From the IMG/VR virus record IMGVR_UViG_3300033066_001904, positions 1 through 64,000 of that record: DNA of 64,000 bases. One strand, 5' to 3'. The notes below the pieces were generated by a model. That model did no database searches, was not told the DNA's origin, and worked only from the letters and a program-made list of their open reading frames with translations. The number at the start of each line of letters is the position of its first letter. Position 1 is the first letter of the stretch. The position numbers and the translations under genes were made by a program. Positions 2,752-64,000 of the stretch are shown here, one piece after another. This stretch comes from a virus (Duplodnaviria > Caudoviricetes).

Positions 2752-3421
2752 TTTCCCAGTTATTTAATGGTGAAAGCCACATGGTTTCTCCATGAGTAGA
2801 ATATCCTGGTAAAGGGGTTATTAACGTTTTTCCTTTATCTCTTAATTCTAAGAACATTTGAAAATCGTGTGGATGAGTAGTAGAGGTCCATTTCCTTAAA
2901 ATACTTTCGTCATCCTTTAACGTTTTAACTTTTGCAGCAAATGTCATAGTTGTTGAATTTGTTAATTTCCAATGGCATGATTTAGATAATAAAACTCTAG
3001 TTATTTCTCCACCTGATTCAACGAATGGGTTTGCTCCATCAATATATTTGTCGGGATGATCATATAATGACACGTAATCAGCTCCTAATTCAATGCCTTC
3101 TAACAAAATTTCTTTAGATTTATTTTTGTGTAAATAATCATTTTCTAAAAAATAAACTATTTCATTATCATCTAATGTTAAAGCATAATTTAACGCTAAG
3201 TTAAAAGTCCCAGCTCCATTCCCTATAGAAACTTTCATTAATGAATTATGACCTATATTTTTAATCATCTCATTAGTATTGTCACTAGTATTATCAGCAA
3301 TAACAAGCCATTTCTCAGTTAGAAAATGTTTTGTAGCATTTATTAGGCAATTAGTATTGTTTATATATGAAGGCTTTACTTTATTATAACCAACGTCTGA
3401 TATTCTGTATATTATTGTCAT
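2735..3421 (-). CDS. GT-A fold glycosyltransferase-like protein
   Basis: LVIADN, GAGTFNLALNYA, YFLENDYLH. Confidence 0.75.
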   Translation of the reverse strand: MTIIYRISDVGYNKVKPSYINNTNCLINATKHFLTEKWLVIADNTSDNTNEMIKNIGHNSLMKVSIGNGAGTFNLALNYALTLDDNEIVYFLENDYLHKNKSKEILLEGIELGADYVSLYDHPDKYIDGANPFVESGGEITRVLLSKSCHWKLTNSTTMTFAAKVKTLKDDESILRKWTSTTHPHDFQMFLELRDKGKTLITPLPGYSTHGETMWLSPLNNWENEIPN

Positions 3422-3653
3422 TTATAATTTTTATAAGACTTATAAAGTCTGATTTAATTTTATCATAATTTCCAGATGTTTTACTTAACACCCTTTCAAT
3501 TTTCCCACTTTCACATAATCTATCAACCATAATAAAATATGTGTCATGGTACATATATTTTCTTAAATATAAGTGAAATCCATTTATTGTAACAAATTCT
3601 ATTAAATCACTATCAAGTAAATATGATGGGTGAAAAGCTTCTATTGTTTTCAT
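3384..3653 (-). CDS. Hypothetical protein
   Basis: 89 aa ORF in operon. Confidence 0.5.
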   Translation of the reverse strand: MKTIEAFHPSYLLDSDLIEFVTINGFHLYLRKYMYHDTYFIMVDRLCESGKIERVLSKTSGNYDKIKSDFISLIKIINDNNIQNIRRWL

Positions 3654-4510
3654 TTTATGAAATTTAAAATTGCTTTATTACTTTGTGCTTCAAATTGTTT
3701 CCAAATATATTCATCTCTTGTATTTAACGTATTTACGCGTTTTAAAGGATGATAATAATTATGCCCTTTTATTCTTGTTGTTATATGATATTGGGGAATT
3801 TCATTTTTTCTAAAATACCACTCAGCACAAGTATCTTCCCTTACAAAATGTAAATCAGGCGCAATAAAAGGAGTTTTTAATCCTTTAGATAATGATAACA
3901 AAGATCCATCGACCTTCCAAAAAAAAGTTTTTACAATTTTTACTTCTTGTTCTTCATTAAATGAATTTAACTGATCTTGTGTTATATAATCGTAATATCT
4001 ATAAGGTTGTAATTCTTCATTAGAGGGTTTTTGATTATTTAAATCAGGATAACGCTGTAATGATTCATGTTCAACACATGTCCAACTATCATCCCACATT
4101 ATTCTTGATGAAAGTGACAATATATGAGCTTCTTGTATTTCAATTTCTGATAGAATATAGAAATAATCCTCCGGGATTAAACAATCGCTTTCACCCCATA
4201 CAGTATATTTAGCATTAGGGTCATAAATTTCTCTTCTCCAATCACCAATATTATAAAATTCATCTTTATCCGTTTTATAGATAATTTCTGCCCTTTTCAA
4301 AACAGGATGAGATAAAAATTGTTTAAACATATCTTCAGGCTTTCCTTCTATTGGTTTTTCAAGCAAAGTTTGAGAGTTTAAACAAAATTTTAATTTTACA
4401 GGTATATTTGAGTGTTTTATTGATTCTTGTAATGAATCCAAAGTTTCATTTATCATCTGTGATTCATACCACATTATATGTTGTTGATATAATATATAAT
4501 TACTTTTCAT
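3650..4510 (-). CDS. Putative glycosyltransferase-like protein
   Basis: WGESDCLIP (ExD), located in the GT island. Confidence 0.5.
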   Translation of the reverse strand: MKSNYILYQQHIMWYESQMINETLDSLQESIKHSNIPVKLKFCLNSQTLLEKPIEGKPEDMFKQFLSHPVLKRAEIIYKTDKDEFYNIGDWRREIYDPNAKYTVWGESDCLIPEDYFYILSEIEIQEAHILSLSSRIMWDDSWTCVEHESLQRYPDLNNQKPSNEELQPYRYYDYITQDQLNSFNEEQEVKIVKTFFWKVDGSLLSLSKGLKTPFIAPDLHFVREDTCAEWYFRKNEIPQYHITTRIKGHNYYHPLKRVNTLNTRDEYIWKQFEAQSNKAILNFIK

Positions 4511-5246
4511 ATTTATAATTTATAGCATCTCTTCTCATTTGTTCCAATTCTTGAAGTTTACCAACTTTATGGAAATGTTCATACATTCTTTTCATAGCTA
4601 ATTCAAAATATTGATTTTTTTCTAAAGAAGGTTTAGCTAATTTTAGTGTAGCTTCTCCATAATGAACCACAGGTAACCAATCACATACTAGTATTTTATG
4701 ATGTATTTCCTTACAAGTCATAGCAGTATGAATATCATACCCATATCCTGGCCATAAATCTTCAGGGTATTCTTGAATTTTTTCCAAAACTTCTCTTTTA
4801 ATTAAAGGACACTGAAAATCAATCCATTCTACAAACCGGAGTTGATTAGATCCCCAATTCCTCATTTGAGGCCAAAAACATTCATTATGTTGATCTTTTC
4901 CTATTACACATGATGATACCATACCTATGTTAGTATGTTCAAACATAATTCTTCTTAATTCTTTAACGTACCTATAACCATGTACATTTAAATCATTATT
5001 CAAAAATAAAAGAGAATCATATTGACTCTCATTTAAAAAATACTCAGTAGCTGCTGCTAATCCTCCCCCAAAATAAACATTTTCAGGAAGTTGTAATGAA
5101 GTATATTTTGATTTTTTTTCTGATGACGAACCATTATCAATAACTTCTAAATCATAATCTTCTCCTTTATAAGGTGCTAACTGTTCATATAGGTTATCCG
5201 TAAATTCTGGTAGCTCAAAATTTAAAATAGTTACTAATGTTTTCAT
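4500..5246 (-). CDS. Glycosyltransferase family 2
   Basis: VIDNGS, FLNND, GYGYD; start moved to MKTLVTIL (5246). Confidence 0.85.
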   Translation of the reverse strand: MKTLVTILNFELPEFTDNLYEQLAPYKGEDYDLEVIDNGSSSEKKSKYTSLQLPENVYFGGGLAAATEYFLNESQYDSLLFLNNDLNVHGYRYVKELRRIMFEHTNIGMVSSCVIGKDQHNECFWPQMRNWGSNQLRFVEWIDFQCPLIKREVLEKIQEYPEDLWPGYGYDIHTAMTCKEIHHKILVCDWLPVVHYGEATLKLAKPSLEKNQYFELAMKRMYEHFHKVGKLQELEQMRRDAINYKYEK

Positions 5247-5779
5247 TTTTTTATCCCCCAAAAATATAAGTCGAATGCTTCTGGATTATAGTCAAAGAAA
5301 TATTCTGAAAAATATAATTCAACATCTAGAAATTCTAGTATATCTTCTTTTGTTAAGTTTTTGTAATAATCAAACCATTCTACGTGTGAGAATGGACTTG
5401 CCCATCCAGACCCAGATTTAATAGTCCCATGCTCTGCTCGACCAGTAGATGCGCATGTAAATGTAAATAATCCTCCAGGTTTTGTAAGTTTTACACAATT
5501 CATTATAGTTTCTCTATAAAAATAATCATGTTCAAAACATTCTGAACTAATAACAATATCATATTGCTTTCCAGGATGGAATTGATGCCCTTTACTAACT
5601 ATATCTACATTATTCCCAGGTCCTATATCTACACCAGTATATGTGTAGTTTTCAAATAAAAAATGGTTATTACCATTTATATCTAGAGATCCTATGTCTA
5701 AGACATCACAATTTTTAAATCGTTCAGGAAATTTATCTTTGACTCTTTTAAAAAAGTCTTGTTGTGCTCCGTGTGCCAT
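5243..5779 (-). CDS. Class I SAM-dependent methyltransferase
   Basis: VLDIGS, GVDI, YDIVISSECFEH, LTKPGG motifs. Confidence 0.9.
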   Translation of the reverse strand: MAHGAQQDFFKRVKDKFPERFKNCDVLDIGSLDINGNNHFLFENYTYTGVDIGPGNNVDIVSKGHQFHPGKQYDIVISSECFEHDYFYRETIMNCVKLTKPGGLFTFTCASTGRAEHGTIKSGSGWASPFSHVEWFDYYKNLTKEDILEFLDVELYFSEYFFDYNPEAFDLYFWGIKK

Positions 5780-5784
5780 AATTT

Positions 5785-6417
5785 TTATATTTTATCAAAA
5801 TAACCCCCAATATCAAATTTAGTACCAGTATTTATTGAACCAGCTTCATTAGGGATAAAGTTTTTAGGGTTTACTACTCTAAAATCTACAGATACTCTGG
5901 TATTAGACGTTTTATTAATTTTATTACCATGCATAAGATTAGCCCCATCAAAAATTAATACTTCACCATATATAACTGTTTGAGGTTTAAAATCTCCTTT
6001 ATCCTCTTTTGATTCTAACCAAATAGTATTGGTATCATAAGCATCAGTAAAGGGCATCCAACAGTTTATTTCAGTTACGCCATGATTATATGTTTTATCT
6101 TTATGCCATTCACCAACTCCTAAATTATTTACTAAATGAACTCTAAAAGTTGGTATTTTTTGATATATAATTTCTTTAAATTTAAAGTGGGGTTTAATAA
6201 CTTCTTTTATAAATTCAGTATACAAAGGTTGAAATTCTTCAAATTTTCTATAATATCTTTTATGCCAAATAGTACTTTGGTCTTTAGATCTTTCTAAGAG
6301 ATCATAGTCTAAATCTTTGTGTAATTTTTCCAAAATGAATACAGAATCCATCATAAATCCTATATTTTCTCTAAATGTATATTTTTCTGTATCATATTGT
6401 ATTTTATATGCTTTCAT
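5785..6417 (-). CDS. 2OG-Fe(II) oxygenase-like protein (PhyH/StrG-like)
   Basis: HKD (HxD), distal H in LMHGN, RVSVDFR; start moved to MKAYKIQ. Confidence 0.7.
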   Translation of the reverse strand: MKAYKIQYDTEKYTFRENIGFMMDSVFILEKLHKDLDYDLLERSKDQSTIWHKRYYRKFEEFQPLYTEFIKEVIKPHFKFKEIIYQKIPTFRVHLVNNLGVGEWHKDKTYNHGVTEINCWMPFTDAYDTNTIWLESKEDKGDFKPQTVIYGEVLIFDGANLMHGNKINKTSNTRVSVDFRVVNPKNFIPNEAGSINTGTKFDIGGYFDKI

Positions 6418-41300: not shown

Positions 41301-41657
41301 AGATGCAATAGAAATATCTGTAATACCAGGCATTGGTCTAATACCTAAGCGATAAGGTTGTCCTGAAGGACTCACGTTAGAGTAAACATCGCTTATATTT
41401 TTTCTAAGATTTCCGTCTTCTTTTAGTATTCCACCTTGTAAAATATATTTTTTAGCTAAAGCACCACCATCATCTTTTACAGGTAATCCATTTTCATCTA
41501 CTTCCGTAACTATATTAACTGCTGAGGTCATTCTAATCCATGAGTTGCGAGAATTTAGGTATTGTAAATTTTGAGGAGTACGATTTACTAATGCATTTTG
41601 ACGTGCATTTATAGAGGCACTAATTGCCGGAATAAATGTATCCTTAAATATGCTCAT
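38355..41657 (-). CDS. Baseplate hub-like protein with C-terminal lysozyme-like domain
   Basis: 1100 aa; C-terminal IIHQNECSLDF..HL.NGDSL...EKYNG.GY...SPYLW resembles COG5526-type lysozymes. Confidence 0.65.
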   Translation of the reverse strand: MSIFKDTFIPAISASINARQNALVNRTPQNLQYLNSRNSWIRMTSAVNIVTEVDENGLPVKDDGGALAKKYILQGGILKEDGNLRKNISDVYSNVSPSGQPYRLGIRPMPGITDISIASKSAYGSLREVTVNFVAWDIRQLEDLELLYMRPGYTVLVEWGWAPYLDSDGSYKTNIQYYDIINQQKPKEQIFKEIFVKATEEYKGNYDACFGYVKNYSWSARPDGGYDCQTHIISLGEVIESLKVNYAPFDLNTSIGTNGILASRLSQINLNSQDLVTEYNKNILAGICYELKEIVYSSTKGKEQLYTINDGGDYYHFFAKNLEVTGQKNTKNTQVYITLESFLKILNKYVLLKDVKGNSPFVSLSDKERKYDKVNQDDKSLLCLAHPLQISTDPSVCLISSPIWQKGFKVSTSTVDDTNLDNLIQFSNTDYTSLINDILYKFYITTFKDSYKQEIITKIKIQTRQNTNEIKEFHKQFQQQKNNLEVVVGGKKLTDVIGQNASLKDFLAYRLSTGQIIEAVGDVRGTLGTINFNYVATVNNPIQEETKALNDAKKSFNDKQSDAYKNLQFLNVLKEFPYFVDNNPYKELGIIGNIFLNVDFLYNLSLNINLSSQDKKEKNEISLYDYLKNTMSEVSQAIGNVSNFDIHVDHIDGMVRIIDINYVDNLSRDEIYKKAFELQVHNLRSTVRNYKLESQIFQEQATIVAIGAQTGGGALGVDSSTLVDFNKKIVDRIIPKKDAPLNTSKDTKTTIEEIKNKLNNLETKLSSLYEYFGNLEQGYVASAKYDINKSSEYKNALKDIIVFFKNITKSDIKNRAIIPTKLSLEMDGIGGLVIGHVFKIPSDILPKGYKGGEVGSRIGYIITGIGGKVANEDWTTSIDAQTIILDNPSGQFIKFEDLVVVENNTLKTKNISDINSQPSVGNIKQLWDSATVNSDKYGELDTLINQMVANKNRYTNIGSQVNTPWYIVAIIHQNECSLDFSKHLYNGDSLQFKTIRYPSGKLVGINPPYTFEQSAVQALKDAEFDKTDFSTIYQQLYALEKYNGLGYRQYGVNSPYLWSYTNQYKAGKFVKDKVFSFEAVSQQPGAAAILKRMKDRGIIN

Positions 41658-41991
41658 GTGTATTTTCTATTTTAACCCTCTTTTTTAAAATACCCCATAT
41701 ATATGCATTATTACTATTCTGCCATTTTCCTAAATTTTCAAAACGAGAATCATTTATCATTTCATCATAAAATTTTTTATCCGTAATATCATTTCCATAA
41801 TATTCTCCATCTCCATTTATTGGAAATATCCGACAATAATATTCTGGGAAATGTTCAGGACCTGGACCTTGACCTCCATCCCAAAAAAATGTATGAATTT
41901 TTAAAAAAACCCCGTCACTTACCTTATATGCCATAAGGAGATTAGGATTATTTATACCAATTTCGGCTAATATGTTTGAAAATTTAATCAT
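41644..41991 (-). CDS. Leader-family protein (MIKFSNILAE|IGINNP), putative capsid-internal protein
   Basis: Shared leader motif. Confidence 0.6.
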   Translation of the reverse strand: MIKFSNILAEIGINNPNLLMAYKVSDGVFLKIHTFFWDGGQGPGPEHFPEYYCRIFPINGDGEYYGNDITDKKFYDEMINDSRFENLGKWQNSNNAYIWGILKKRVKIENTHEHI

Positions 41992-42293
41992 CTAGCACTA
42001 TTAAAATCGTTAAACAGTTTTAAAACAGCATTAAGATCAGTTGGAATTCTTAATTGCGTCCCTGGTTGAGGAAATAACGATCCTCTAGTAACATTATTAT
42101 TAGCAGCCGAAATTATTCTCCACAAAGATGAATCTCCGTAATAATTATAAGCTAAATTATCTAATCGATCTCCAACAGATGTAATAATGTAAAAATCATT
42201 ATTAGACAAAGGTATATTAGGATATAACTTACCTTGATAATAAGGTACTCCTTGATCTGTTTTTTTTATGTCTAGATTAGTATATAAGTTCAT
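41988..42293 (-). CDS. LysM-like baseplate protein
   Basis: GDRLDNLAYNYYGDSSLWRII..AN...PGTQLRIP. Confidence 0.75.
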   Translation of the reverse strand: MNLYTNLDIKKTDQGVPYYQGKLYPNIPLSNNDFYIITSVGDRLDNLAYNYYGDSSLWRIISAANNNVTRGSLFPQPGTQLRIPTDLNAVLKLFNDFNSAR

Positions 42294-42580
42294 TTATTTT
42301 TCTCCCAATAATTTTCTAATGATGTTTTAGTCCACCAATCCCACCCACCTTGATTTTGGGGTAGATCTTTTTTTGGTAAATCTCGTGCACCAATCATTGT
42401 AAGTCCTTTATTATGGACAATTTGTTTTACTTTTTGAGGAGGATTAGTGTCATATAGAGAAAATTCTAAGATATCTCCTTCTTGAATTCTTTCAAATTTT
42501 ACTCCTGGTTTATCTAAGTTCCATGTCTGAGAAGGTTTATTAACACCAATTTCGGCTAATATGTTTGAAAATTTTATCAT
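42290..42580 (-). CDS. Leader-family protein (MIKFSNILAE|IGVNKP)
   Basis: Shared leader motif. Confidence 0.6.
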   Translation of the reverse strand: MIKFSNILAEIGVNKPSQTWNLDKPGVKFERIQEGDILEFSLYDTNPPQKVKQIVHNKGLTMIGARDLPKKDLPQNQGGWDWWTKTSLENYWEKNK

Positions 42581-53589: not shown

Positions 53590-55923
53590 TTAATAAAAAT
53601 TTAAATTTGTAAAGATTTTAGATGGTATGTAAATATTGTTAATTCTTGTATCAAACGATGCTGAACTACTTACATAACTACCACTAAATATTGCTAAAGA
53701 TGCACTATCTGTAGTGATTCTTAAAGCGAATGATGCTGAATCCGTTATATAACTAGCCGTAAATATGTTAAATGACGATGTAGTTACATATGATCCGGAA
53801 ATAGCTTTAATTCTTGCATCAAACGATGAAGAATTTGTAACATAGCTAGCTGAAAAAGTTGCTAAAGATGCACTATCTGTAGTAATTCTTGATGCAAATG
53901 ACGCACTATCATTTTGATAACTTGATGTAAATGCGTTGAATGATGACGTTGTAACAAATGAACCTGTATTAATGCTACCACCAGACCCAGATATAGAATT
54001 TATTCTTGCATCAAATGAAGCAGAATCTCCATAATATGATTGAGTAAATGCATAGTAAGATGCTGATATTTGACTTATTTGTGAATTCCAAGAAGCACTA
54101 TCAATCTTATAACTTGAAGTAAATAAATTAAAACTTGAAGTTATATTATTAATTCTATTATCAAACGATGCCGACGTTGTTATAAAACTTGATGAAAATG
54201 TTGTAAATGATTGGCTATCTGTAGTTATTCTAGCCGCAAACGAAGCACTATCATTTTGATAACTTGATGTAAAGGTATTGAATGATGAAGTTATATTATT
54301 AATTCTTGCATCGAAAGAAGCAGATGTTACTATGAAACTTGATGAAAAATTAACATAAGATGATGATACTAATATAAATGAAGAACTTAAATTAGATAAG
54401 TTTGATAAAAATGATGCGCTATCTATTTTATAGCTTGAAGTAAAAGCATTAAACGAAGAAGTAGTAACAAATGAACCTGTGTTAATTAAACTTCCTGCAC
54501 TTCCATTAGAAGCACTTGTTACTCTACCTTTACTATCTACAGTTACCGTAGCATTTGTGTAAGTTCCAGGTACTACTCCAGAGCTTGTTAGTGTAGTATT
54601 TATAGTTCCTGTTCCTGATCCTAAAACATCTCCTTGTAATACAATATTTTGAACTTGATTCGAAGAAGTTGTACTTAATAAAACAATATTATCTAAATAA
54701 AATCCAGGGAATGCTCCTGTATTATTGCCTGTTCTTCTTATTCTTAATCCATTAGCATTACTAATATTTCCAAATGCAGATAAAGGTATAGATATACTTT
54801 GATAACTAGATGAATTACTTGATACAAATCCATAAGTATTAGGTGATAATACTACTGTATTACCGGCGGATGCCGTTCCTGTTAAAAATAGAAAAGTTAT
54901 GGTTTTACTAGCAACCCAAGTTGTTTTACTTTTTATTTGAAAATTTAAAATGTTATAATTAGAAATATTAGGAGATACACTAGATTTTAAATCAATAAAA
55001 TCATTAGCTAATGAATTACTTGCTTCTATTGCAAATGTTCCTTGATAAGGACTTGTTGTTGAATTTAAAAAGAATCTAGTAGGAGTAGTAGCTGAACCAG
55101 ACCATTCTGTAGCAGGATTATTTTCTCTATATATACTTTGAGTAACAATTCCTGGTGAAGTACTATTTGCTAGTACTAAAGCAAATGATATTTCTAGTTC
55201 GGTATCTGTGTCAATATCTGGTTTATCTGGTGTACTAGATGGAGAACCTGATACAATAATAGCCATACTTGCTGTCGTTAAAGCAAATACATCAATTCTA
55301 TCTAAAGTTGGATCACTAGGAGCTAAAGTAAGATTAGTTGATGGACTACTATAATATGTGTTATTAATATAATAAGTAGCTGCGCTAACATTATAATTAT
55401 AATCACTTAACCATGTTACTATTCCCCCATTTACTAGTCCGTTTTGTATAGTATTAATTGAATAACTAGGATGAAAATTCCTTAATCCTCCAGAAGCAGA
55501 ATCATATGCAAATAAATCTCCGTTTTGTAAAGAAGAAGTATAAACATCCTGTAAGTCAAAAAATTTAGTTGCAGAAGACGCTGATATGTTATTAATTCTA
55601 AAATCAAATGATGATGATGCTACATAATAACTTGAAGTAAAAGCACCAAATGATGATGTAGTAACAAATGAACCCGTATTAATAGCCGAACTAGAAATAG
55701 CATTTATTCGTTGATCAAAAGATGCTGAGTCTCCATAATAACTTGATGTAAAATTATTAAAAGAAGATGTTAAAGTATAAAAGGGAGCATATGAAGCTGT
55801 ACCTGCATAAGATGCACTTATTATATTAGTGATTCCTGTTCCATCTCCTTGAAAAGAACCACTAAATGATCCACTTAGTGAAAGTGGCTGACTTAACTGT
55901 TTACCTTTTAATAAATCACTCAT
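53590..55923 (-). CDS. Tail fibre with Ser/Thr-rich coiled-coil repeats and a central CBM-like domain
   Basis: Repeated TSSF..FTSSY..DSASF..RI; fibre motif GVVPGTYTNATVTVDSKGRVT; IPLSAF...FYLDNIVL. Confidence 0.75.
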   Translation of the reverse strand: MSDLLKGKQLSQPLSLSGSFSGSFQGDGTGITNIISASYAGTASYAPFYTLTSSFNNFTSSYYGDSASFDQRINAISSSAINTGSFVTTSSFGAFTSSYYVASSSFDFRINNISASSATKFFDLQDVYTSSLQNGDLFAYDSASGGLRNFHPSYSINTIQNGLVNGGIVTWLSDYNYNVSAATYYINNTYYSSPSTNLTLAPSDPTLDRIDVFALTTASMAIIVSGSPSSTPDKPDIDTDTELEISFALVLANSTSPGIVTQSIYRENNPATEWSGSATTPTRFFLNSTTSPYQGTFAIEASNSLANDFIDLKSSVSPNISNYNILNFQIKSKTTWVASKTITFLFLTGTASAGNTVVLSPNTYGFVSSNSSSYQSISIPLSAFGNISNANGLRIRRTGNNTGAFPGFYLDNIVLLSTTSSNQVQNIVLQGDVLGSGTGTINTTLTSSGVVPGTYTNATVTVDSKGRVTSASNGSAGSLINTGSFVTTSSFNAFTSSYKIDSASFLSNLSNLSSSFILVSSSYVNFSSSFIVTSASFDARINNITSSFNTFTSSYQNDSASFAARITTDSQSFTTFSSSFITTSASFDNRINNITSSFNLFTSSYKIDSASWNSQISQISASYYAFTQSYYGDSASFDARINSISGSGGSINTGSFVTTSSFNAFTSSYQNDSASFASRITTDSASLATFSASYVTNSSSFDARIKAISGSYVTTSSFNIFTASYITDSASFALRITTDSASLAIFSGSYVSSSASFDTRINNIYIPSKIFTNLNFY

Positions 55924-57191: not shown

Positions 57192-57541
57192 TATTTAAGA
57201 TTTTGTTGACGTAATTTAACGTATTTATCTAAAGTATCTAAATCAGCTTTAGCTAAAGATAATAATTTCATTATAGTTCCAGCTGTTTGTTTAATATTTT
57301 CATCATCGTGGAACATTTTATATGGAGCTAGTTCTGTTCTCATTTTAGACAATTGAGATTTCATTCTACCAAAATTAGCTAAATTTTCAACTTTTTGAAA
57401 TTCAGCTCCGGTACGGGGATCAGTCTCATTTGAACCTAATCTAAAGCCCTTGTCAATTAATTCCTGTTCGGAATCTTTTGCTTTGTATCCACGAGGCATT
57501 TGAGTATATACTTCTCTTACTATTTGTATTAATGTTTTCAT
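57191..57541 (-). CDS. Hypothetical protein with leader-like N-terminus (MKTLIQIVRE)
   Basis: 10-aa N-terminus ending in E. Confidence 0.5.
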   Translation of the reverse strand: MKTLIQIVREVYTQMPRGYKAKDSEQELIDKGFRLGSNETDPRTGAEFQKVENLANFGRMKSQLSKMRTELAPYKMFHDDENIKQTAGTIMKLLSLAKADLDTLDKYVKLRQQNLK

Positions 57542-58143
57542 TATATTTCTATTGTTTTAATAATCTCTACATTTTGTTCAGGAATAACATATAAATATTC
57601 GTCTGACCCGTATGTATGTTTTTCTTTCTCTAATTTCATTAAAGGAAAATATTGTGATTTTTTTAATCTTTTTACATTAAATTCATCAAACCATTCATAA
57701 TATATTTTATTTTTTTCATCATAATGAAAATAAAATTCATTATCTATTTGAATTACGTTTTCAGATTCCCACACACTAAGAATTTCTTTTGGATATAATA
57801 CAGCTCTAATTTTATTAGGTATATTTACACCAATTTCATCTAATTTACCAACAATTTGAATTTGAGATTTAGGAATAATTAATAATATTCTATTACCATC
57901 CTGATATTTTTTAAACCATTTTTTTAAAATATTACTATCACCCTCATACTGATCATAAGTATAATAATATCCTGGAATACAGTGGGCAGATATTGGTGTA
58001 TTTCCATCAAAGCACAGAATATCAGTATCTTCGCCATAATCTTTTATAAGTATTGTACCGAGTAATTCATTACTTTCATATGCTTTTAACTTATGAGGAT
58101 CGTTAATACCTATTTCACGTAATATATTTTTAAAAGTTATCAT
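57541..58143 (-). CDS. Leader-family two-module protein (MITFKNILRE|IGINDP ... LDE|IGVNIP)
   Basis: Leader plus an internal copy after E103. Confidence 0.65.
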   Translation of the reverse strand: MITFKNILREIGINDPHKLKAYESNELLGTILIKDYGEDTDILCFDGNTPISAHCIPGYYYTYDQYEGDSNILKKWFKKYQDGNRILLIIPKSQIQIVGKLDEIGVNIPNKIRAVLYPKEILSVWESENVIQIDNEFYFHYDEKNKIYYEWFDEFNVKRLKKSQYFPLMKLEKEKHTYGSDEYLYVIPEQNVEIIKTIEI

Positions 58144-58679
58144 ATTCTTTGTATAGATAATCCTAGTTTTTCTGGTCTCATATAATGTGCTTCACAAATT
58201 ATTGATAAAGAATTTCCAAAATTATCATTATTTTCTGAATAAGAATATTCTGGTACTTTACCAAAAATAAATTGATTTTCAATTACTCGGTCAACTTCAT
58301 AATAATTTTCATTCCAAACAATCACATCTCCCATTTCAGGAACAACGTTATATGTAAACCCTTTTCCATCAGGTGATAATTCCACACTTAGTGAATTACC
58401 CGCTAAATCATCGCGTAAAAAGCGAAAATTAACGTTTTGAATAATGTCAGGACCTAAGTCATCAGAAGTCACATTTGGATCAGGTCTATCAATTAAACAA
58501 TTGATTAAAACAGGATCTGCGTATGTTTTTGTGCCACTTGCTTCACCATATACATTAGATGTTGTCTTATCTAAAATTATTTTATAATATCCAACTTTTT
58601 GTTCAATAATATTATTTAATAATTCTCGATTAATATGTCTAATTAATGAAATATCTCTTTGATCTCCCCACAAACTCAT
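58140..58679 (-). CDS. Neck / head-closure protein (T4 gp14-like)
   Basis: RELLNNII.Q, NVYGE, FRFLRDDL, PE.GD.I.W. Confidence 0.7.
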   Translation of the reverse strand: MSLWGDQRDISLIRHINRELLNNIIEQKVGYYKIILDKTTSNVYGEASGTKTYADPVLINCLIDRPDPNVTSDDLGPDIIQNVNFRFLRDDLAGNSLSVELSPDGKGFTYNVVPEMGDVIVWNENYYEVDRVIENQFIFGKVPEYSYSENNDNFGNSLSIICEAHYMRPEKLGLSIQRI

Positions 58680-58685
58680 AATTTA

Positions 58686-59045
58686 TTATTTTATATTGTG
58701 TAATATTATTAAAGCATTATTATACCCTAATCCAAGAGTAATGCAATATTTATAAAGATATGGTAAATCAAATGCATCCTCAGCACTATCCTCTACTTCA
58801 AAGACATAAATATCTTTTATAGTAAAATTATCATAATATAATTTAGCATATTTATCATTTTCACTAGGATTTTCTATACTATCTCCTAAATCCTTCATGT
58901 AATATTTATAATTATCATAAAGATATAAATTCTGAATTAAAGCATACCCATCTTGGTCAGAAGTTGTAATATAATCTAAAATTTCCTTTTTAGTTATTGG
59001 TTTATTTATACCAATTTCAGGTAATATGTTTTCAAATTTAATCAA
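58686..59045 (-). CDS. Leader-family protein (TTG start; MIKFENILPE|IGINKP)
   Basis: Shared leader motif. Confidence 0.6.
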   Translation of the reverse strand: MIKFENILPEIGINKPITKKEILDYITTSDQDGYALIQNLYLYDNYKYYMKDLGDSIENPSENDKYAKLYYDNFTIKDIYVFEVEDSAEDAFDLPYLYKYCITLGLGYNNALIILHNIK

Positions 59046-59373
59046 CTTCTATCTTTAATGTGTTTTTGGGAATTCTAATCCAACTATATTCATCACTATC
59101 ATCATCATCAACTATTTTATATTTTATATTATGTTTTTTTACAATATTAATAAAATCATTAATATCTTTTTGATAATTTTCATCACTTTTCTCAAATTCT
59201 ATACTAACTGTATCTGGATTATAATCCTCATTCCACATTCCCGCATATGATTTATCCCCATATGTTATTAAATATTGTTCTGAACCATCTCCTGCAAAGT
59301 CAACAATTGCATTAAAAATTTTATTTGGATTATTAATACCTATTTCACATAATATTTGTTTAAATGTTATCAT
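59038..59373 (-). CDS. Leader-family protein (MITFKQILCE|IGINNP)
   Basis: Shared leader motif. Confidence 0.6.
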   Translation of the reverse strand: MITFKQILCEIGINNPNKIFNAIVDFAGDGSEQYLITYGDKSYAGMWNEDYNPDTVSIEFEKSDENYQKDINDFINIVKKHNIKYKIVDDDDSDEYSWIRIPKNTLKIEVD

Positions 59374-59690
59374 TACATTTCCTTCTTTAAAATAGTTTTA
59401 TATCTTGGCATAAATTGCATTAATCCTTTAATAGGAATTGCTTTCTTTTTTATCAAGTCTATCTCTTCTCGGGGAGTTGAACTTACAACATATTTTACGT
59501 GTAATAAAGCAAATTCCCATTGAGGTGTTTTTTTAGTGTCTAAAAATGAATTTTGTTCTACTTTTACAACTACAACACCTTCTATTGCTCTTAATAAATT
59601 ATATATTTCTACCTTATTAAAACGAGTATCTGTTTTAATTAAAACTTCACATTCAAATAGGTTTAATGCTTCTTTTAATATACTAATCAT
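59373..59690 (-). CDS. Hypothetical protein
   Basis: 105 aa; LRAIEGVVVV ferredoxin-like pattern. Confidence 0.55.
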   Translation of the reverse strand: MISILKEALNLFECEVLIKTDTRFNKVEIYNLLRAIEGVVVVKVEQNSFLDTKKTPQWEFALLHVKYVVSSTPREEIDLIKKKAIPIKGLMQFMPRYKTILKKEM

Positions 59691-60391
59691 TTATATTTCC
59701 ATTTAAAATTTTTAGCAGATTGTATTCTTCCTTTAAGAACTTGACAAAGATGACCATTATCTATCCCTAAACACATTGAAGCTTTTTTAGCACTTTCCCA
59801 TTCACATATAAAATTTCCATTTAAATCATATTGTAAAATAGGTTTTTTAATCCAAACATGATTTTTAAGTTTAAAAGGATTTTCCTTTTTGATTTTAGAA
59901 ATTTTTTCTTTTGTTATATGATATTTTTTACCTTTTTTAGCTTGAGATATTTTTTCTTTTTGTTCTTTGGTAAATTTATATCCTAACGCATACTTATTTC
60001 CTATTTTTGATTGACCTATTTTTTGTTTTCTTTCTTCAGAAAATTTTTTACCTTTATTAGCTTTAGATATTTTTTGTTTTGTTTCTTCACTTTTAGGACC
60101 ACTTCCTCTATCATATATTTCTGTAAATAAAATATTACTTTTATTTACTTTTTCTAAAAAAAATTTTTTCCAATATATTTCTTTTTCATTTAATTCTTCT
60201 TTTGAACATTTTTCTAAAATTTCAAATTGGTGATTTTTAGGGCCATGATTTTTTAAAGAATTATATAATTTTGGACCTATACTAGTTTTATGTAATTTTA
60301 TATAATTATTCCATCTACTTTCAATATTAATAGATTGTCCTATATAAACTTTTTCTGAAGGTGACGTTATTTTATAAATTCCTATACTCAT
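59687..60391 (-). mobile_element. Free-standing GIY-YIG homing endonuclease with NUMOD3/NUMOD1 repeats
   Basis: GIYKITSPSEKVYIGQS, ETKQKISKA repeats, KPILQYD...WKY. Confidence 0.92.
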
Positions 60392-60416
60392 AATAATAAA
60401 TATTTATAATTTTAAT

Positions 60417-61565
60417 CTAAAACACATAAATAGGAAGAGGAATTTGAGAAATAATCTGCTGAACTGACTGTGCTTCAGAAACTTGATTTTCAAGTTGTGT
60501 TTTTCTAGACACCATATCTAATGTTGCTCTAAGTTGTTCAAGTAACTTAGCTTTTTCATCACGAGCATCAGTTAATAAATCTTGTTGATTTAAAGAAACT
60601 TCAGCGCCAGGAATTGGGGTTGTTTGATATTTACCCCTTACATAAGCTAACATTTCCTTAACCAACGCTAAAGCATATTGTCTAATCCATTGTTTACCAA
60701 TTGCATTAAGTTGAGAAAATACTGGGTTTTCATATGGTACATTTCCTATATTTGTTATAAGATCTGTACGTCCATTACTTGAAGCTACTACACTATTTCT
60801 TTCATCAATTAAAATGTAGTGAAATAACAACATTTTATCAATTTCTGGAATTGGAAATATTCTTAATTTATTATTGTGGATGTCAAATGAGAAAGCTGAT
60901 TTACGAATTTGGTCATTTAGTTCGATGGATTGAATTTTTTGGACGTCAAAATATATAGGCATTAGTAAAAAGTTAATGCCTGGTGAAAATTGCCCAAATC
61001 CAAATGATTCTAATAATGATTGAATTCCGGTTCCTGTACCTGCGTATGGATCAAAATATCTAACAATAGCAGGTGGTTCTTCATAAAAAACTCTTTTAAT
61101 TTCTGCTGACCCTGTTATTCCTTTTGCAGCTAATATAGCGTTCAAGTCATAATCTTGAACAGATGCTGTTAGAGCAAAAGAACAAGTATAATAGTTTGTA
61201 TAACCACCAGCACCGGCTTCTGAAGCATAAGTTTCAGATATTCTTATAACTGACCCTAAATTTGGAGTTACTAGTTGATTATTAAATGAAGAGCCTGTAG
61301 AATTACCTTCCATTGAAAGATAATTTTCTCTTACTTTATATTGATAAATTTCGTTACCATAAGTAGTAACAGCTTCTTCTAGAGCAGCATAAAAATTTAT
61401 GTCTTGTAGTTCAATATTGACAATAGGGTACCCTAAACGCTCTGCAGCCCAGCGCGCAAATTGAGGTCCCTCTATTTGATATGAACTATCATTATCATAA
61501 AATCCAAAAGGTGTAGATCCTGATATAGGACCTGCACTACCCGACCATATTGGTATATTAGCCAT
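60417..61565 (-). CDS. Neck / head-tail adaptor protein (T4 gp13-like)
   Basis: RLGYPIVNIEL, WIRQYALAL.KEML..VRGKY...IPG. Confidence 0.8.
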   Translation of the reverse strand: MANIPIWSGSAGPISGSTPFGFYDNDSSYQIEGPQFARWAAERLGYPIVNIELQDINFYAALEEAVTTYGNEIYQYKVRENYLSMEGNSTGSSFNNQLVTPNLGSVIRISETYASEAGAGGYTNYYTCSFALTASVQDYDLNAILAAKGITGSAEIKRVFYEEPPAIVRYFDPYAGTGTGIQSLLESFGFGQFSPGINFLLMPIYFDVQKIQSIELNDQIRKSAFSFDIHNNKLRIFPIPEIDKMLLFHYILIDERNSVVASSNGRTDLITNIGNVPYENPVFSQLNAIGKQWIRQYALALVKEMLAYVRGKYQTTPIPGAEVSLNQQDLLTDARDEKAKLLEQLRATLDMVSRKTQLENQVSEAQSVQQIISQIPLPIYVF

Positions 61566-61590
61566 TAATTAACAGTATTTCGTATAAATA

Positions 61591-62262
61591 TTAAGAATCT
61601 CTATGATCTGAATATATATTTAAAATGTGTTCCACAATAGGATCTCTGTGATTTGTTTTAAGAGTTACAACTCCAAATCCTTCAACAGATGTTAAATTAT
61701 TACATATGAAATTAAAACCAGACATTTTTCTATCTTTAAGATCAATTTGGGCTGTATCTCCACAAATTATCATTCGAGATCCAGAGCATATTCTTCCTAG
61801 TAATAATTCCATTTGTCGATGAGTTATATTTTGACCTTCATCAACAACTACGCAACAATTAGATAAATTTCTTCCACGCATGAATGCTAAAGGAATAACT
61901 TCTATATTACCATCCACAATTTCTTTATCAATTTTTTCTTTATTGTAGAGACGGTACATATTATCGTATATTGCAGCCACATAAGGTGCTAATTTATCGT
62001 CTTTAGTACCTGGTAGATATCCTATTTCTTCACCAGATGTTACTGCTGGTCTTGTTAAAATTATTTTTTCCACTTCACCTTTAAATAGTAAATCAAGAGC
62101 AACTTGGGCTGCAACCATAGATTTACCTGATCCTGCTGATCCTTTTAAAACTGTTATTTTATTTTGGAAAATTACTGACTTAGCTTGTTTTTGTTCGTCA
62201 TTAAGTTGTATTTGAAACCTAATTGGATTTTTCGGAGTGCGCTTATTTTTTTGCTCTTCCAT
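61591..62262 (-). CDS. phoH: PhoH-family ATPase
   Basis: GSAGSGKS, RPAV, G.LPG, LAFMRGR, DEGQN, GD.AQID. Confidence 0.95.
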   Translation of the reverse strand: MEEQKNKRTPKNPIRFQIQLNDEQKQAKSVIFQNKITVLKGSAGSGKSMVAAQVALDLLFKGEVEKIILTRPAVTSGEEIGYLPGTKDDKLAPYVAAIYDNMYRLYNKEKIDKEIVDGNIEVIPLAFMRGRNLSNCCVVVDEGQNITHRQMELLLGRICSGSRMIICGDTAQIDLKDRKMSGFNFICNNLTSVEGFGVVTLKTNHRDPIVEHILNIYSDHRDS

Positions 62263-62279
62263 GTTTGTGGGGTTTTTAT

Positions 62280-63701
62280 TTATATATCTAGCATTTTTAA
62301 ATTTCCTTTTGAATCATAACCAAAATTGTTATTGTGAACATCAATATATTTTTTATTTAAATCTTTTAAAATATTGTGGATAAGAAGATATAATTTTTTA
62401 TATTTTTCAAATAGTTCTGGGTTTTGTTGTGCAAATTCCTTAAATAGATCTTTGTAGTGAGACTTCTCATAATCACCTGCATTGTACCATCCTCTTACTA
62501 AAGCATATGTCCATTCAGCTAAATCATGAGGACTTAAACTATAGTTTAATTTTTTTCTAATAAAATTAGAAATATTTAAAGCATCATCTTTAAAAGTTTC
62601 ATCATCTAATTTTTCTAGAACAACATATTTGTCTGTTATTTTTTCAATTTTTGGAAAGTATTGAGGATATTTTTGAAATATGTTTATCCAATATGATGCA
62701 TTATCTTTCGCTGCTTGATTTCTAAATGTTTTTATTACAAAATTTGGATTTTTTATAAATGGATAAACTTCATGTTCTGAACCATTTTTAGAATTTTTAC
62801 GTTGAATATCTAATTCATTTATATCTAAAAGATCTTTATCTTCATATTTTTCAACATGTTTTTGTAAATCTTGATATAAATTATAAACTTTTAATGACGA
62901 CAAATACTTATCAACCCAATTAAATATGTTATCTTCGTTATATGGTTTATTAAAACCATATTTTCTTAATATATTAAAATATTCACGTGCTCCTGAGGCA
63001 TCACATAATCCACTATGTATTTTATCTTTTATAAGTTGTTTTATTTTTTCATTTATATTAGGATTATTTATACCTATTTCATCTAGTGAATCTTTAAATT
63101 TATTAAATCCTGTGAAATCTACATATTTAGCATCAAATATTATTTCATTTTCATTTATTACCTCGTAAGGTATATGATGCTTCTCTAAAAATTGTACAGC
63201 TGATTCAAAATATTTATCATTCCTAATATGAGTAACACTAAATTTAGAAGGTTTTCCCATATTATAATAACCAAGATAAAAAAACTCTTGATAACCAAAT
63301 TCATCCTCCGGATCTTTAAAATAAAAACATGATCTTTCCTGATTACGTGGTTTCAATATAATGGGAGGTTTATTAACACCTATCTCTTTTAAATTATTAA
63401 CGATCTGAACTCGATCTTTAGGAATACCATATGTAATATAATGTTCAGATTCTTCTAATATTTGACAGTATTTAAAATAGCGCCAATTTGTAAAATTAAT
63501 AACATAATTAGGTTTAACAATGTGTTTACACCAATAACCATGAAATGGTTCACTCTTATTATCTCCATCAAAAAAAAATTCATCATCTATTTTAATAAGT
63601 ATACGATCATTATGATACCAATTATCTTTTTTTACAGCCTTTATTTTTCCTGGTGTATTTACACCTATTTCCTTTAAAATTTCTACAAATTTCAACTTCA
63701 T
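62280..63701 (-). CDS. Leader-family multi-module protein with C-terminal kinase-like domain
   Basis: Three E|IG(V/I)NxP motifs; C-terminal VIK...YIDVHNNN...MLDI. Confidence 0.7.
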   Translation of the reverse strand: MKLKFVEILKEIGVNTPGKIKAVKKDNWYHNDRILIKIDDEFFFDGDNKSEPFHGYWCKHIVKPNYVINFTNWRYFKYCQILEESEHYITYGIPKDRVQIVNNLKEIGVNKPPIILKPRNQERSCFYFKDPEDEFGYQEFFYLGYYNMGKPSKFSVTHIRNDKYFESAVQFLEKHHIPYEVINENEIIFDAKYVDFTGFNKFKDSLDEIGINNPNINEKIKQLIKDKIHSGLCDASGAREYFNILRKYGFNKPYNEDNIFNWVDKYLSSLKVYNLYQDLQKHVEKYEDKDLLDINELDIQRKNSKNGSEHEVYPFIKNPNFVIKTFRNQAAKDNASYWINIFQKYPQYFPKIEKITDKYVVLEKLDDETFKDDALNISNFIRKKLNYSLSPHDLAEWTYALVRGWYNAGDYEKSHYKDLFKEFAQQNPELFEKYKKLYLLIHNILKDLNKKYIDVHNNNFGYDSKGNLKMLDI

Positions 63702-63768: not shown

Positions 63769-63999
63769 TTAAACTGTTTCTAATCCTGCAACATATATCT
63801 TTCCATAATAATCAGGACGAATCATCTTCTTAGCGTAACGAGTCATTAAACCTTTTCTTGGTGTGAAGGTTGAAGGATCGTAAAGAAGAGGAGTCATAAT
63901 TAACGGAACATATGGTGCAAATACAGCTCCACATTCTAGGAATTGAGCTCCTTTATAACCCATAAGAATTATATTCTCAGTCATATAAGGATTTTTGTA
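63769..63999 (-). CDS. Major capsid protein, C-terminal fragment (T4 gp23-like; gene continues beyond the window)
   Basis: GAVFAPYVPL...DPSTFTPRKGLMTRY. Confidence 0.92.
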   Translation of the reverse strand, partial: YKNPYMTENIILMGYKGAQFLECGAVFAPYVPLIMTPLLYDPSTFTPRKGLMTRYAKKMIRPDYYGKIYVAGLETV

Positions 64000-64000
64000 T

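Follow-up and report, generated by a model that had tools for sequence, protein, structure and literature searches.

The first 64 kb of an 86.8-kb contig (about 28% G+C; IMG/VR record IMGVR_UViG_3300033066_001904) from an uncultivated, T4-like phage, a 64,000-nucleotide stretch called the window here, encodes two proteins of 473 and 200 amino acids in which small domains are strung together by a short peptide, [LI]-x-E-I-G-[IV]-N-x-P. The same peptide spans the end of a 10-residue, T4-like leader at the N terminus of many separate small genes of the phage. Judging from these sequences and from analogy with T4, we consider it probable that the two chains are fused leader-bearing cargo genes, the products of which are cut apart by the prohead protease. 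The initial annotation of the window had proposed such a polyprotein, and the comparative evidence (an S77 protease gene, the anatomy of the leader, the free-standing modules and a linker-like structural model) fits that proposal; the conserved residues after the presumed cut are the part that it leaves unexplained, as gp21-type specificity does not account for them. The larger of the two proteins is organized as follows (a slash marks the predicted cut; P1 is the residue before it and P1′ the residue after it; CTS is the capsid-targeting sequence of T4 internal proteins).

62280..63701, minus strand: 473-amino-acid protein with an 11-residue leader, an A domain, an unknown domain, a B domain and a kinase-like domain
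63669..63701, minus strand: N-terminal leader MKLKFVEILKE, residues 1–11, CTS-like
63651..63677, minus strand: junction 0 (P3–P6′), LKE/IGVNTP, after E11
63384..63668, minus strand: module 1, residues 12–106, small beta-rich domain of family A (alignment A1)
63366..63392, minus strand: junction 1, LKE/IGVNKP, after E106
63078..63383, minus strand: module 2, residues 107–208, unknown domain
63060..63086, minus strand: junction 2, LDE/IGINNP, after E208, with a KF leader relic ahead of it
62814..63077, minus strand: module 3, residues 209–296, helical domain of family B
62796..62822, minus strand: degenerate junction 3, INE/LDIQRK, after E296
62283..62813, minus strand: module 4, residues 297–473, probable small kinase-like (APH-like) domain

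The gene lies directly downstream of the major capsid gene, and the Glu codons of its three full junctions start at 63671 (E11), 63386 (E106) and 63080 (E208). A six-frame scan places these junctions, and the degenerate INE/LDI after E296, where the initial annotation had put them, and the module sizes that it had derived (95, 102, 88 and 177 amino acids) are correct. Three of the four modules (1, 3 and 4) also exist elsewhere as separate genes, each with its own leader of 10–11 residues. Module 1, matched in a profile search at E = 9e-33, has five free-standing homologues of 88–115 amino acids, all with the leader (P0006, P0009, P0010, P0011 and P0012). Module 3 aligns with the B family (alignment A6) at an hhalign probability of 96.5% (E = 7e-10), and its free-standing form is a 90-amino-acid leader protein encoded next to the protease gene. 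For module 4, seven free-standing homologues are known, 189–203 amino acids long (E = 1e-13 to 9e-21); all eight sequences share G-S-x-H, VIK, D-[VI]-[HN]-x-x-[NQ] and, towards the C terminus, K-[ML]-L-D, to be compared with the Gly-rich loop, catalytic Lys, HxxN catalytic loop and metal-binding Asp of a two-lobed kinase fold. Searches of Pfam and PDB profiles returned nothing significant for it; its AlphaFold2 model is poor (mean predicted local distance difference test score, pLDDT, of 62), and its best Foldseek matches, nearly all of them APH(2″) and otherwise sugar kinases, have weak scores (E = 0.008–0.05, TM about 0.3). The module resembles a minimal, APH-like kinase domain and may be one. 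For module 2, a weak BLASTP match (E = 0.001, 20% identity) to the free-standing leader protein encoded at 59038–59373 is no more than suggestive of kinship. Even the degenerate junction 3 (KDLLDINE) aligns with the leaders of free-standing homologues (MKDLIKKILKE and MIKLINILKE; alignment A4), with invariant L and E columns.

The second chain is simpler, and carries the internal copy that the initial annotation had reported in it.

57541..58143, minus strand: 200-amino-acid two-module protein with a leader, an A domain, a junction and a second A domain
58096..58122, minus strand: junction after E10, LRE/IGINDP
57817..57843, minus strand: internal junction after E103, LDE/IGVNIP

Its modules are 93 and 97 amino acids long, and its A-A architecture is shared with a 194-amino-acid protein of another phage (P0003) at 35% identity.

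A six-frame scan of the window found nine copies of [LI]-x-E-I-G-[IV]-N-x-P, all on the minus strand and all in frame inside long open reading frames (ORFs), against an analytical chance expectation of 0.0004; 500 residue shuffles gave 0.002 copies and 200 base shuffles gave 0, with a maximum of 1 in any shuffle. Over the whole contig, the genes of which lie almost without exception on the minus strand, there are 17 copies, spread over 13 ORFs, and at least 12 tagged genes are present on these 87 kb. A full-text literature search for the junction peptides found no paper, and the T4 late promoter TATAAATA shows no strand enrichment (25 versus 20) and is not placed ahead of the tagged genes. Within the motif, codons differ synonymously (ATT/ATA, GGT/GGA, GTA/GTT/GTG and CCT/CCA) while the amino acids are invariant, which indicates selection for the peptide itself and not for the DNA sequence. 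This largely refutes the idea that the repeats are a feature of the DNA, such as a site of recombination or cassette shuffling or the trace of a recent duplication, with the peptide having no function. Internal-protein loci of T-even phages are shuffled around conserved leader sequences, and the modules described here occur in many different orders and sets across the chains, as such a site might produce; with freely varying synonymous positions and no conservation of the DNA flanking the copies, we regard this explanation as very improbable.

To define the anatomy of the tag, we pooled the copies on the contig with those on related viral contigs retrieved by a degenerate DNA pattern, giving 21 distinct N-terminal and 25 distinct internal copies. 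The N-terminal copies read M-I-K/T-F-x-x-I-L-x-E / I-G-I/V-N-x-P, with F, I, L/I and E present in all 21 at leader positions 4, 7, 8 and 10; the leader is 10 residues long in 20 copies and 11 in the remaining one. In the 11-residue leader of the 473-amino-acid protein, F, I, L and E likewise occupy the positions that correspond to residues 4, 7, 8 and 10 of the T4 CTS (PMC9026906). In all 25 internal copies, L/I is retained at P3 and E at P1, together with the complete prime side, and positions 4 and 7 vary. The prime side, I-G-I/V-N-x-P, is invariant in all 46. The T4 CTS is MKTYQEFIAE (PMC8442874); suppressor analysis assigned its residues 4 and 7 to targeting and residues 8 and 10 to processing, and the T4 protease gp21 cuts after L/I-x-E (PMC9026906). 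As far as sequence can tell, the N-terminal tag thus has the full anatomy of a T4 CTS and the internal copies retain its processing half only. The initial annotation had read the internal copies, which it described as keeping only L-x-E/IGxNxP, as protease sites and not as targeting signals; the description is true of all 25, and their retained processing positions and lost targeting positions fit the reading.

The junction links domains of unrelated families: A (about 95 amino acids, beta-rich), B (about 85 amino acids, helical), C and D (both small domains), the kinase-like domain (about 180 amino acids) and, in the relative P0014, a SET domain (Pfam, 7e-6). P0014 (L097:2608-3426) consists of the leader MIKLLNILKE, the SET domain, LNE/LEINSP, an A domain, INE/LEINNP and a B domain, and so represents an enzyme cargo within a chain with variant junctions in a more distant relative. 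Among 15 aligned A modules, which are about 35% identical, the sole invariant columns are the junction E, I, G, N and P. We folded the leader-A-junction segment of the 200-amino-acid protein and the junction-module 4 segment separately with AlphaFold2. In the former, the beta domain is confident (pLDDT 75–91), leader residues 1–13 and junction residues 105–108 fall below 50, and the last strand of A ends just ahead of L-x-E. The initial annotation had suggested such modelling as a check on independent folding; domain A gives a confident model with a low-confidence junction, and the model of module 4 is poor. The same annotation had raised the possibility that the motif is a beta-strand of a repeated domain. 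It is not: on the evidence of the alignments and the model, the motif is a portable junction that joins unrelated families through a low-confidence linker. Domain A has no clear counterpart in the PDB: comparison of its fold in Foldseek gave nothing below E = 0.68, and the best Z in a wide VIA-align comparison was 3.4. The string IQIV ahead of some internal junctions was considered as a leader relic and rejected; it is the last strand of domain A and is present also where A ends a protein.

The protease that the preferred reading calls for is encoded on the same contig, 3.3 kb away. A T4-type head module, which includes the gp20 portal, a Peptidase_S77 prohead protease and the gp23 capsid protein, lies just past the end of the window.

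63769..64000, minus strand: 3′ end of the gp23-type major capsid gene, which runs on to contig position 65391 (Pfam Gp23, 1.4e-77)
contig 63769–65391: major capsid protein, whole gene (Pfam Gp23, 1.4e-77)
contig 67006–67644, outside the window: S77 prohead protease gene (Pfam Peptidase_S77, 8.6e-26; PHROG head maturation protease, 9.6e-52)
head module, past the window end: T4-type portal (Pfam Portal_T4, 1.8e-65)
head module, past the window end: T4-type large terminase
head module, past the window end: acidic scaffold-like protein
head module, beside the protease gene: 90-amino-acid tagged protein of family B

An S77 protease in the same phage, a propeptide of about 10 residues that ends in L/I-x-E, and separate targeting and processing positions are hallmarks of the T4-type CTS/gp21 system, and all three are found here. 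By analogy with T4, the 10-residue leader would load each protein into the scaffolding core of the prohead, and the phage Peptidase_S77 (gp21-type) would remove it after the Glu. Chains of small cargo domains would have arisen by in-frame fusion of neighbouring leader-bearing genes, and in the fused proteins the former leaders would have become inter-domain junctions that keep only L/I at P3, E at P1 and I-G-I/V-N-x-P. A single N-terminal leader would then load the whole chain, and head maturation would free modules of 10–21 kDa, small enough to exit with the DNA and possibly to act against the host.

A site of the form [I/V/M]-[T/S/V]-E/ is conserved in the capsid protein, both in the phage of the window and in all 36 relatives compared; it precedes by about 30 residues LPLVRRV, a conserved anchor close to where the Gp23 fold begins. 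The corresponding place is where T4 gp23 is cut. In our phage the predicted maturation site is LITE/GNITGG, at capsid residue 59 (contig 65215 region). The E/GNITG string recurs as ILEEE/GNIT[GS]P near the N terminus of a head-module protein in two related contigs (L070:3214-4305 and L071:2629-3918).

Several observations weigh against cleavage of the chains by this protease. The predicted capsid site lacks IG(I/V)NxP, and the many L-x-E sites of the scaffold protein include none with I-G-I/V-N-x-P. Proteases of the gp21 and phiKZ types have few determinants beyond P3–P1 (PMC9026906), at odds with positions P1′–P6′ that do not vary among the 46 copies; given this sparse specificity and the capsid site, a gp21-type protease fails to explain the conservation of the prime side. 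No documented precedent for Ile at P1′ was found in the literature that could be checked. In T4, phiKZ and SPN3US, each substrate yields one mature product and a discarded propeptide (PMC10052503); a chain from which several products are released and kept would be a novelty by comparison. The leader genes, moreover, are dispersed among tail and baseplate genes and are not confined to the head genes.

An invariant I-G-I/V-N-x-P resembles a binding epitope more than a gp21-type site, and the proteins might therefore stay whole, with the motif serving as an inter-domain adaptor (a short helix and turn) bound by a common partner such as the scaffold, the capsid interior, a chaperone or a host factor. 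The chains would then be uncleaved ‘polyvalent’ proteins, and some packaged polyvalent proteins, for example the N4 virion RNA polymerase, are indeed unprocessed (PMC5512222). We nevertheless consider this unlikely. The same motif follows a T4-CTS-like leader at 21 N termini, of the T4 positions it is selectively the two for processing that persist in the internal copies, and the junction segment is modelled as a low-confidence linker. The leader also occurs without IG(I/V)NxP, both in the free-standing homologues of module 4 and in a 670-amino-acid protein of the contig (contig 78826–80838; leader MITFKKILQE), so the two elements are separable.

The role of the prime side may be to adjust cleavage, to bind a partner or to act on the modules once they are free. 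It could form the third part of a code in which the leader loads, L/I-x-E releases and the exposed IG(I/V)NxP N terminus is read by a further machine, for ordered ejection through the portal and tail, for anchoring to the packaged DNA or for recognition in the host; we offer this as a speculation with a low chance of being right. Asn-Pro self-cleavage and 2A-like skipping were set aside, because the residue between N and P varies and the residues come in a different order.

A much longer chain was also found. An ORF of 2,192 amino acids (L008:6597-13175, minus strand) has 14 full and 3 degenerate junctions that delimit about 15 modules of families A–D together with one that carries an HExxH (HELVH) motif, and it is seen whole or in part in two further loci (L006:1-2325 and L010:4219-6900). 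The L006 contig is 99–100% identical to the last 5.4 kb of our contig and then continues into the C-terminal 774 residues of this ORF, which places the chain in the same or a near-identical phage. The HELVH module has weak matches to DUF6782, a putative metallopeptidase (E = 0.012), and to clusters that contain Peptidase_M78 (score 0.79), both below the reliable threshold. Processing by embedded peptidases has been proposed by Iyer et al. (PMC5512222), and a different peptidase, either this module or a host enzyme, might read E-I-G-I/V-N-x-P, perhaps after injection; this would account for the extended invariant recognition sequence and has the HELVH matches as leads. With those matches so weak, no peptidase match in the 473- and 200-amino-acid proteins, and L/I at P3 and E at P1 fitting the specificity of an S77 protease that the phage certainly encodes, we judge it distinctly improbable.

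These loci also bear on whether errors of assembly or sequencing have joined separate genes into spurious long ORFs. The sequence is metagenomic, and only one contig is on record for the 473-amino-acid protein: a near-length search of 5.8e9 proteins returned the protein itself and no full-length homologue. However, the junctions contain no stop relics or frame changes, the A-A, A-B and 472-amino-acid architectures recur in independent contigs at 35–100% identity, and the 2,192-amino-acid ORF is represented in three loci; the chains are almost certainly not artefacts.

A leader-A-junction profile matched only 15 proteins among 1.84 billion representatives, which identifies the family as a lineage-specific invention. 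We also surveyed 80 viral contigs that encode a related S77 protease (45–69% identity). Plain MIKLxxILxE leaders occur near the head genes in 9 of them, and prime-side variants (ELGINNP, ELEINNP, ELSVNNP and ELDINNP) in only two, L070 and L071, with the prime-side motif missing from the 77 other protease relatives; the leader is thus older and more widespread than the prime-side element, and the two are again separable. The nearest named phage, Flavobacterium phage immuto, has about 70% nucleotide identity to the window over PhoH and the capsid gene only, and the motif is absent from the 27 kb around its head module. Other recurrent N termini were also seen. In the head modules of L018, L021, L023, L055 and L070, which belong to the same phage clade, several small proteins near the protease share a different tag, [IL]-N-E-[IA]-K-R-M-Q-Q-L-A-G-I-[IL]-x-E. 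Another phage, with a free-standing module-4 homologue (L012:6711-11733 and 3358-6150) has M-[KR]-I-I-I-T-E-E-Q-K-K-K-L-F on five adjacent genes and M-R-S-[IL]-K on six small genes, possibly further tag families.

The following free-standing leader-bearing genes are present in the window.

41644..41991, minus strand: 115 amino acids, family A
42290..42580, minus strand: 96 amino acids, family C
58686..59045, minus strand: 119 amino acids, TTG start
59038..59373, minus strand: 111 amino acids

Tagged genes stand in tandem, each overlapping the stop of its upstream neighbour by 1–14 nucleotides, mostly 4, an arrangement that would make in-frame fusion easy, as one small change could fuse two. 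Beyond the window, at contig 77997–81373, four tagged genes in a row encode proteins of 123, 154, 670 and 182 amino acids with overlaps of 4–14 nucleotides. Searches of Pfam and PHROGs gave no significant match for any tagged protein of the window or any module of its two chains.

Two other genes of the window were noted. A GIY-YIG homing endonuclease with NUMOD3 and NUMOD1 motifs (59687–60391, minus strand; Pfam 5.8e-6 and 3.2e-7) is inserted in the interval that separates the tagged genes from the head-tail adaptor gene, and its homologues are located elsewhere in the related contigs L004 and L008. A Ser-rich protein of 777 amino acids (53590–55923, minus strand), probably a fibre, has many copies of an F-T-S-S-Y...D-S-A-S-F...R-I repeat; it has no Pfam match and a 51%-identical stretch in L004.

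If real, the system would be a variant of the T4 CTS/gp21 system that combines CTS processing with the idea of polyvalent proteins. As with the CTS of IPI–III in T4, a 10-residue N-terminal propeptide ending in L/I-x-E, with hydrophobic or aromatic residues at positions 4 and 7 (MKTYQEFIAE in T4, MIKFxxILxE here), is borne by varied, otherwise unrelated small proteins in a genome that also encodes an S77 protease, gp20 and gp23. The differences from T4 are an invariant IG(I/V)NxP directly after the Glu, as many as 14 internal repeats of the tag in one protein, at least 12 tagged genes within 87 kb, and tagged proteins that share no sequence homology with T4 internal proteins.

Polyvalent proteins of phages and conjugative elements (Iyer, Burroughs, Anand, de Souza and Aravind, 2017) string 2–15 unrelated small domains on one polypeptide; they are thought to be delivered with DNA and freed by proteolysis, and have been likened to the polyproteins of RNA viruses (PMC5512222). 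Several unrelated domains are likewise joined in the 473-amino-acid protein (A, unknown, B and kinase-like) and in the 2,192-amino-acid ORF (A–D and HExxH). Polyvalent proteins are defined by embedded peptidases and a known domain vocabulary, whereas Pfam finds none of these domains here: searches for that vocabulary (LPD, PBECR, DarA-N and others) gave no significant Pfam or PHROGs match in the modules of the window’s chains, although these were library searches only and distant relatives are possible. In our phage, moreover, the prohead protease would release the domains, and the junction, of one uniform kind, is identical to the leader site of free-standing genes. Several head proteins (gp22, gp67, gp68 and Alt of T4, and proteins of phiKZ, 201phi2-1 and SPN3US) are cut after Glu at several sites by the prohead protease; there, additional cleavage breaks down a propeptide or scaffold and a single mature product remains (PMC10052503, PMC9026906), whereas the pieces here are folded domains with counterparts encoded as separate genes.

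If the junctions are cut, these chains would be the first described prohead-protease polyproteins that we have found in which the products are separate folded cargoes and not discarded propeptides, and they would connect the T4 CTS with polyvalent proteins, two subjects so far treated apart. The tag and junction would provide a simple sequence rule by which the injected proteins of a phage could be listed from its genome alone. For this phage the candidate list comprises the dozen tagged genes on the contig and the 15-module chain of the 2,192-amino-acid ORF; among its entries are a kinase-like domain, the SET domain of a relative and a possible metallopeptidase. Such chains suggest a way, taken from nature, to load several proteins into T4-type capsids, vehicles that are already used for delivery, and the three-part code, if true, would amount to a natural, programmable delivery system in which a single ORF supplies as many as about 15 different effectors.

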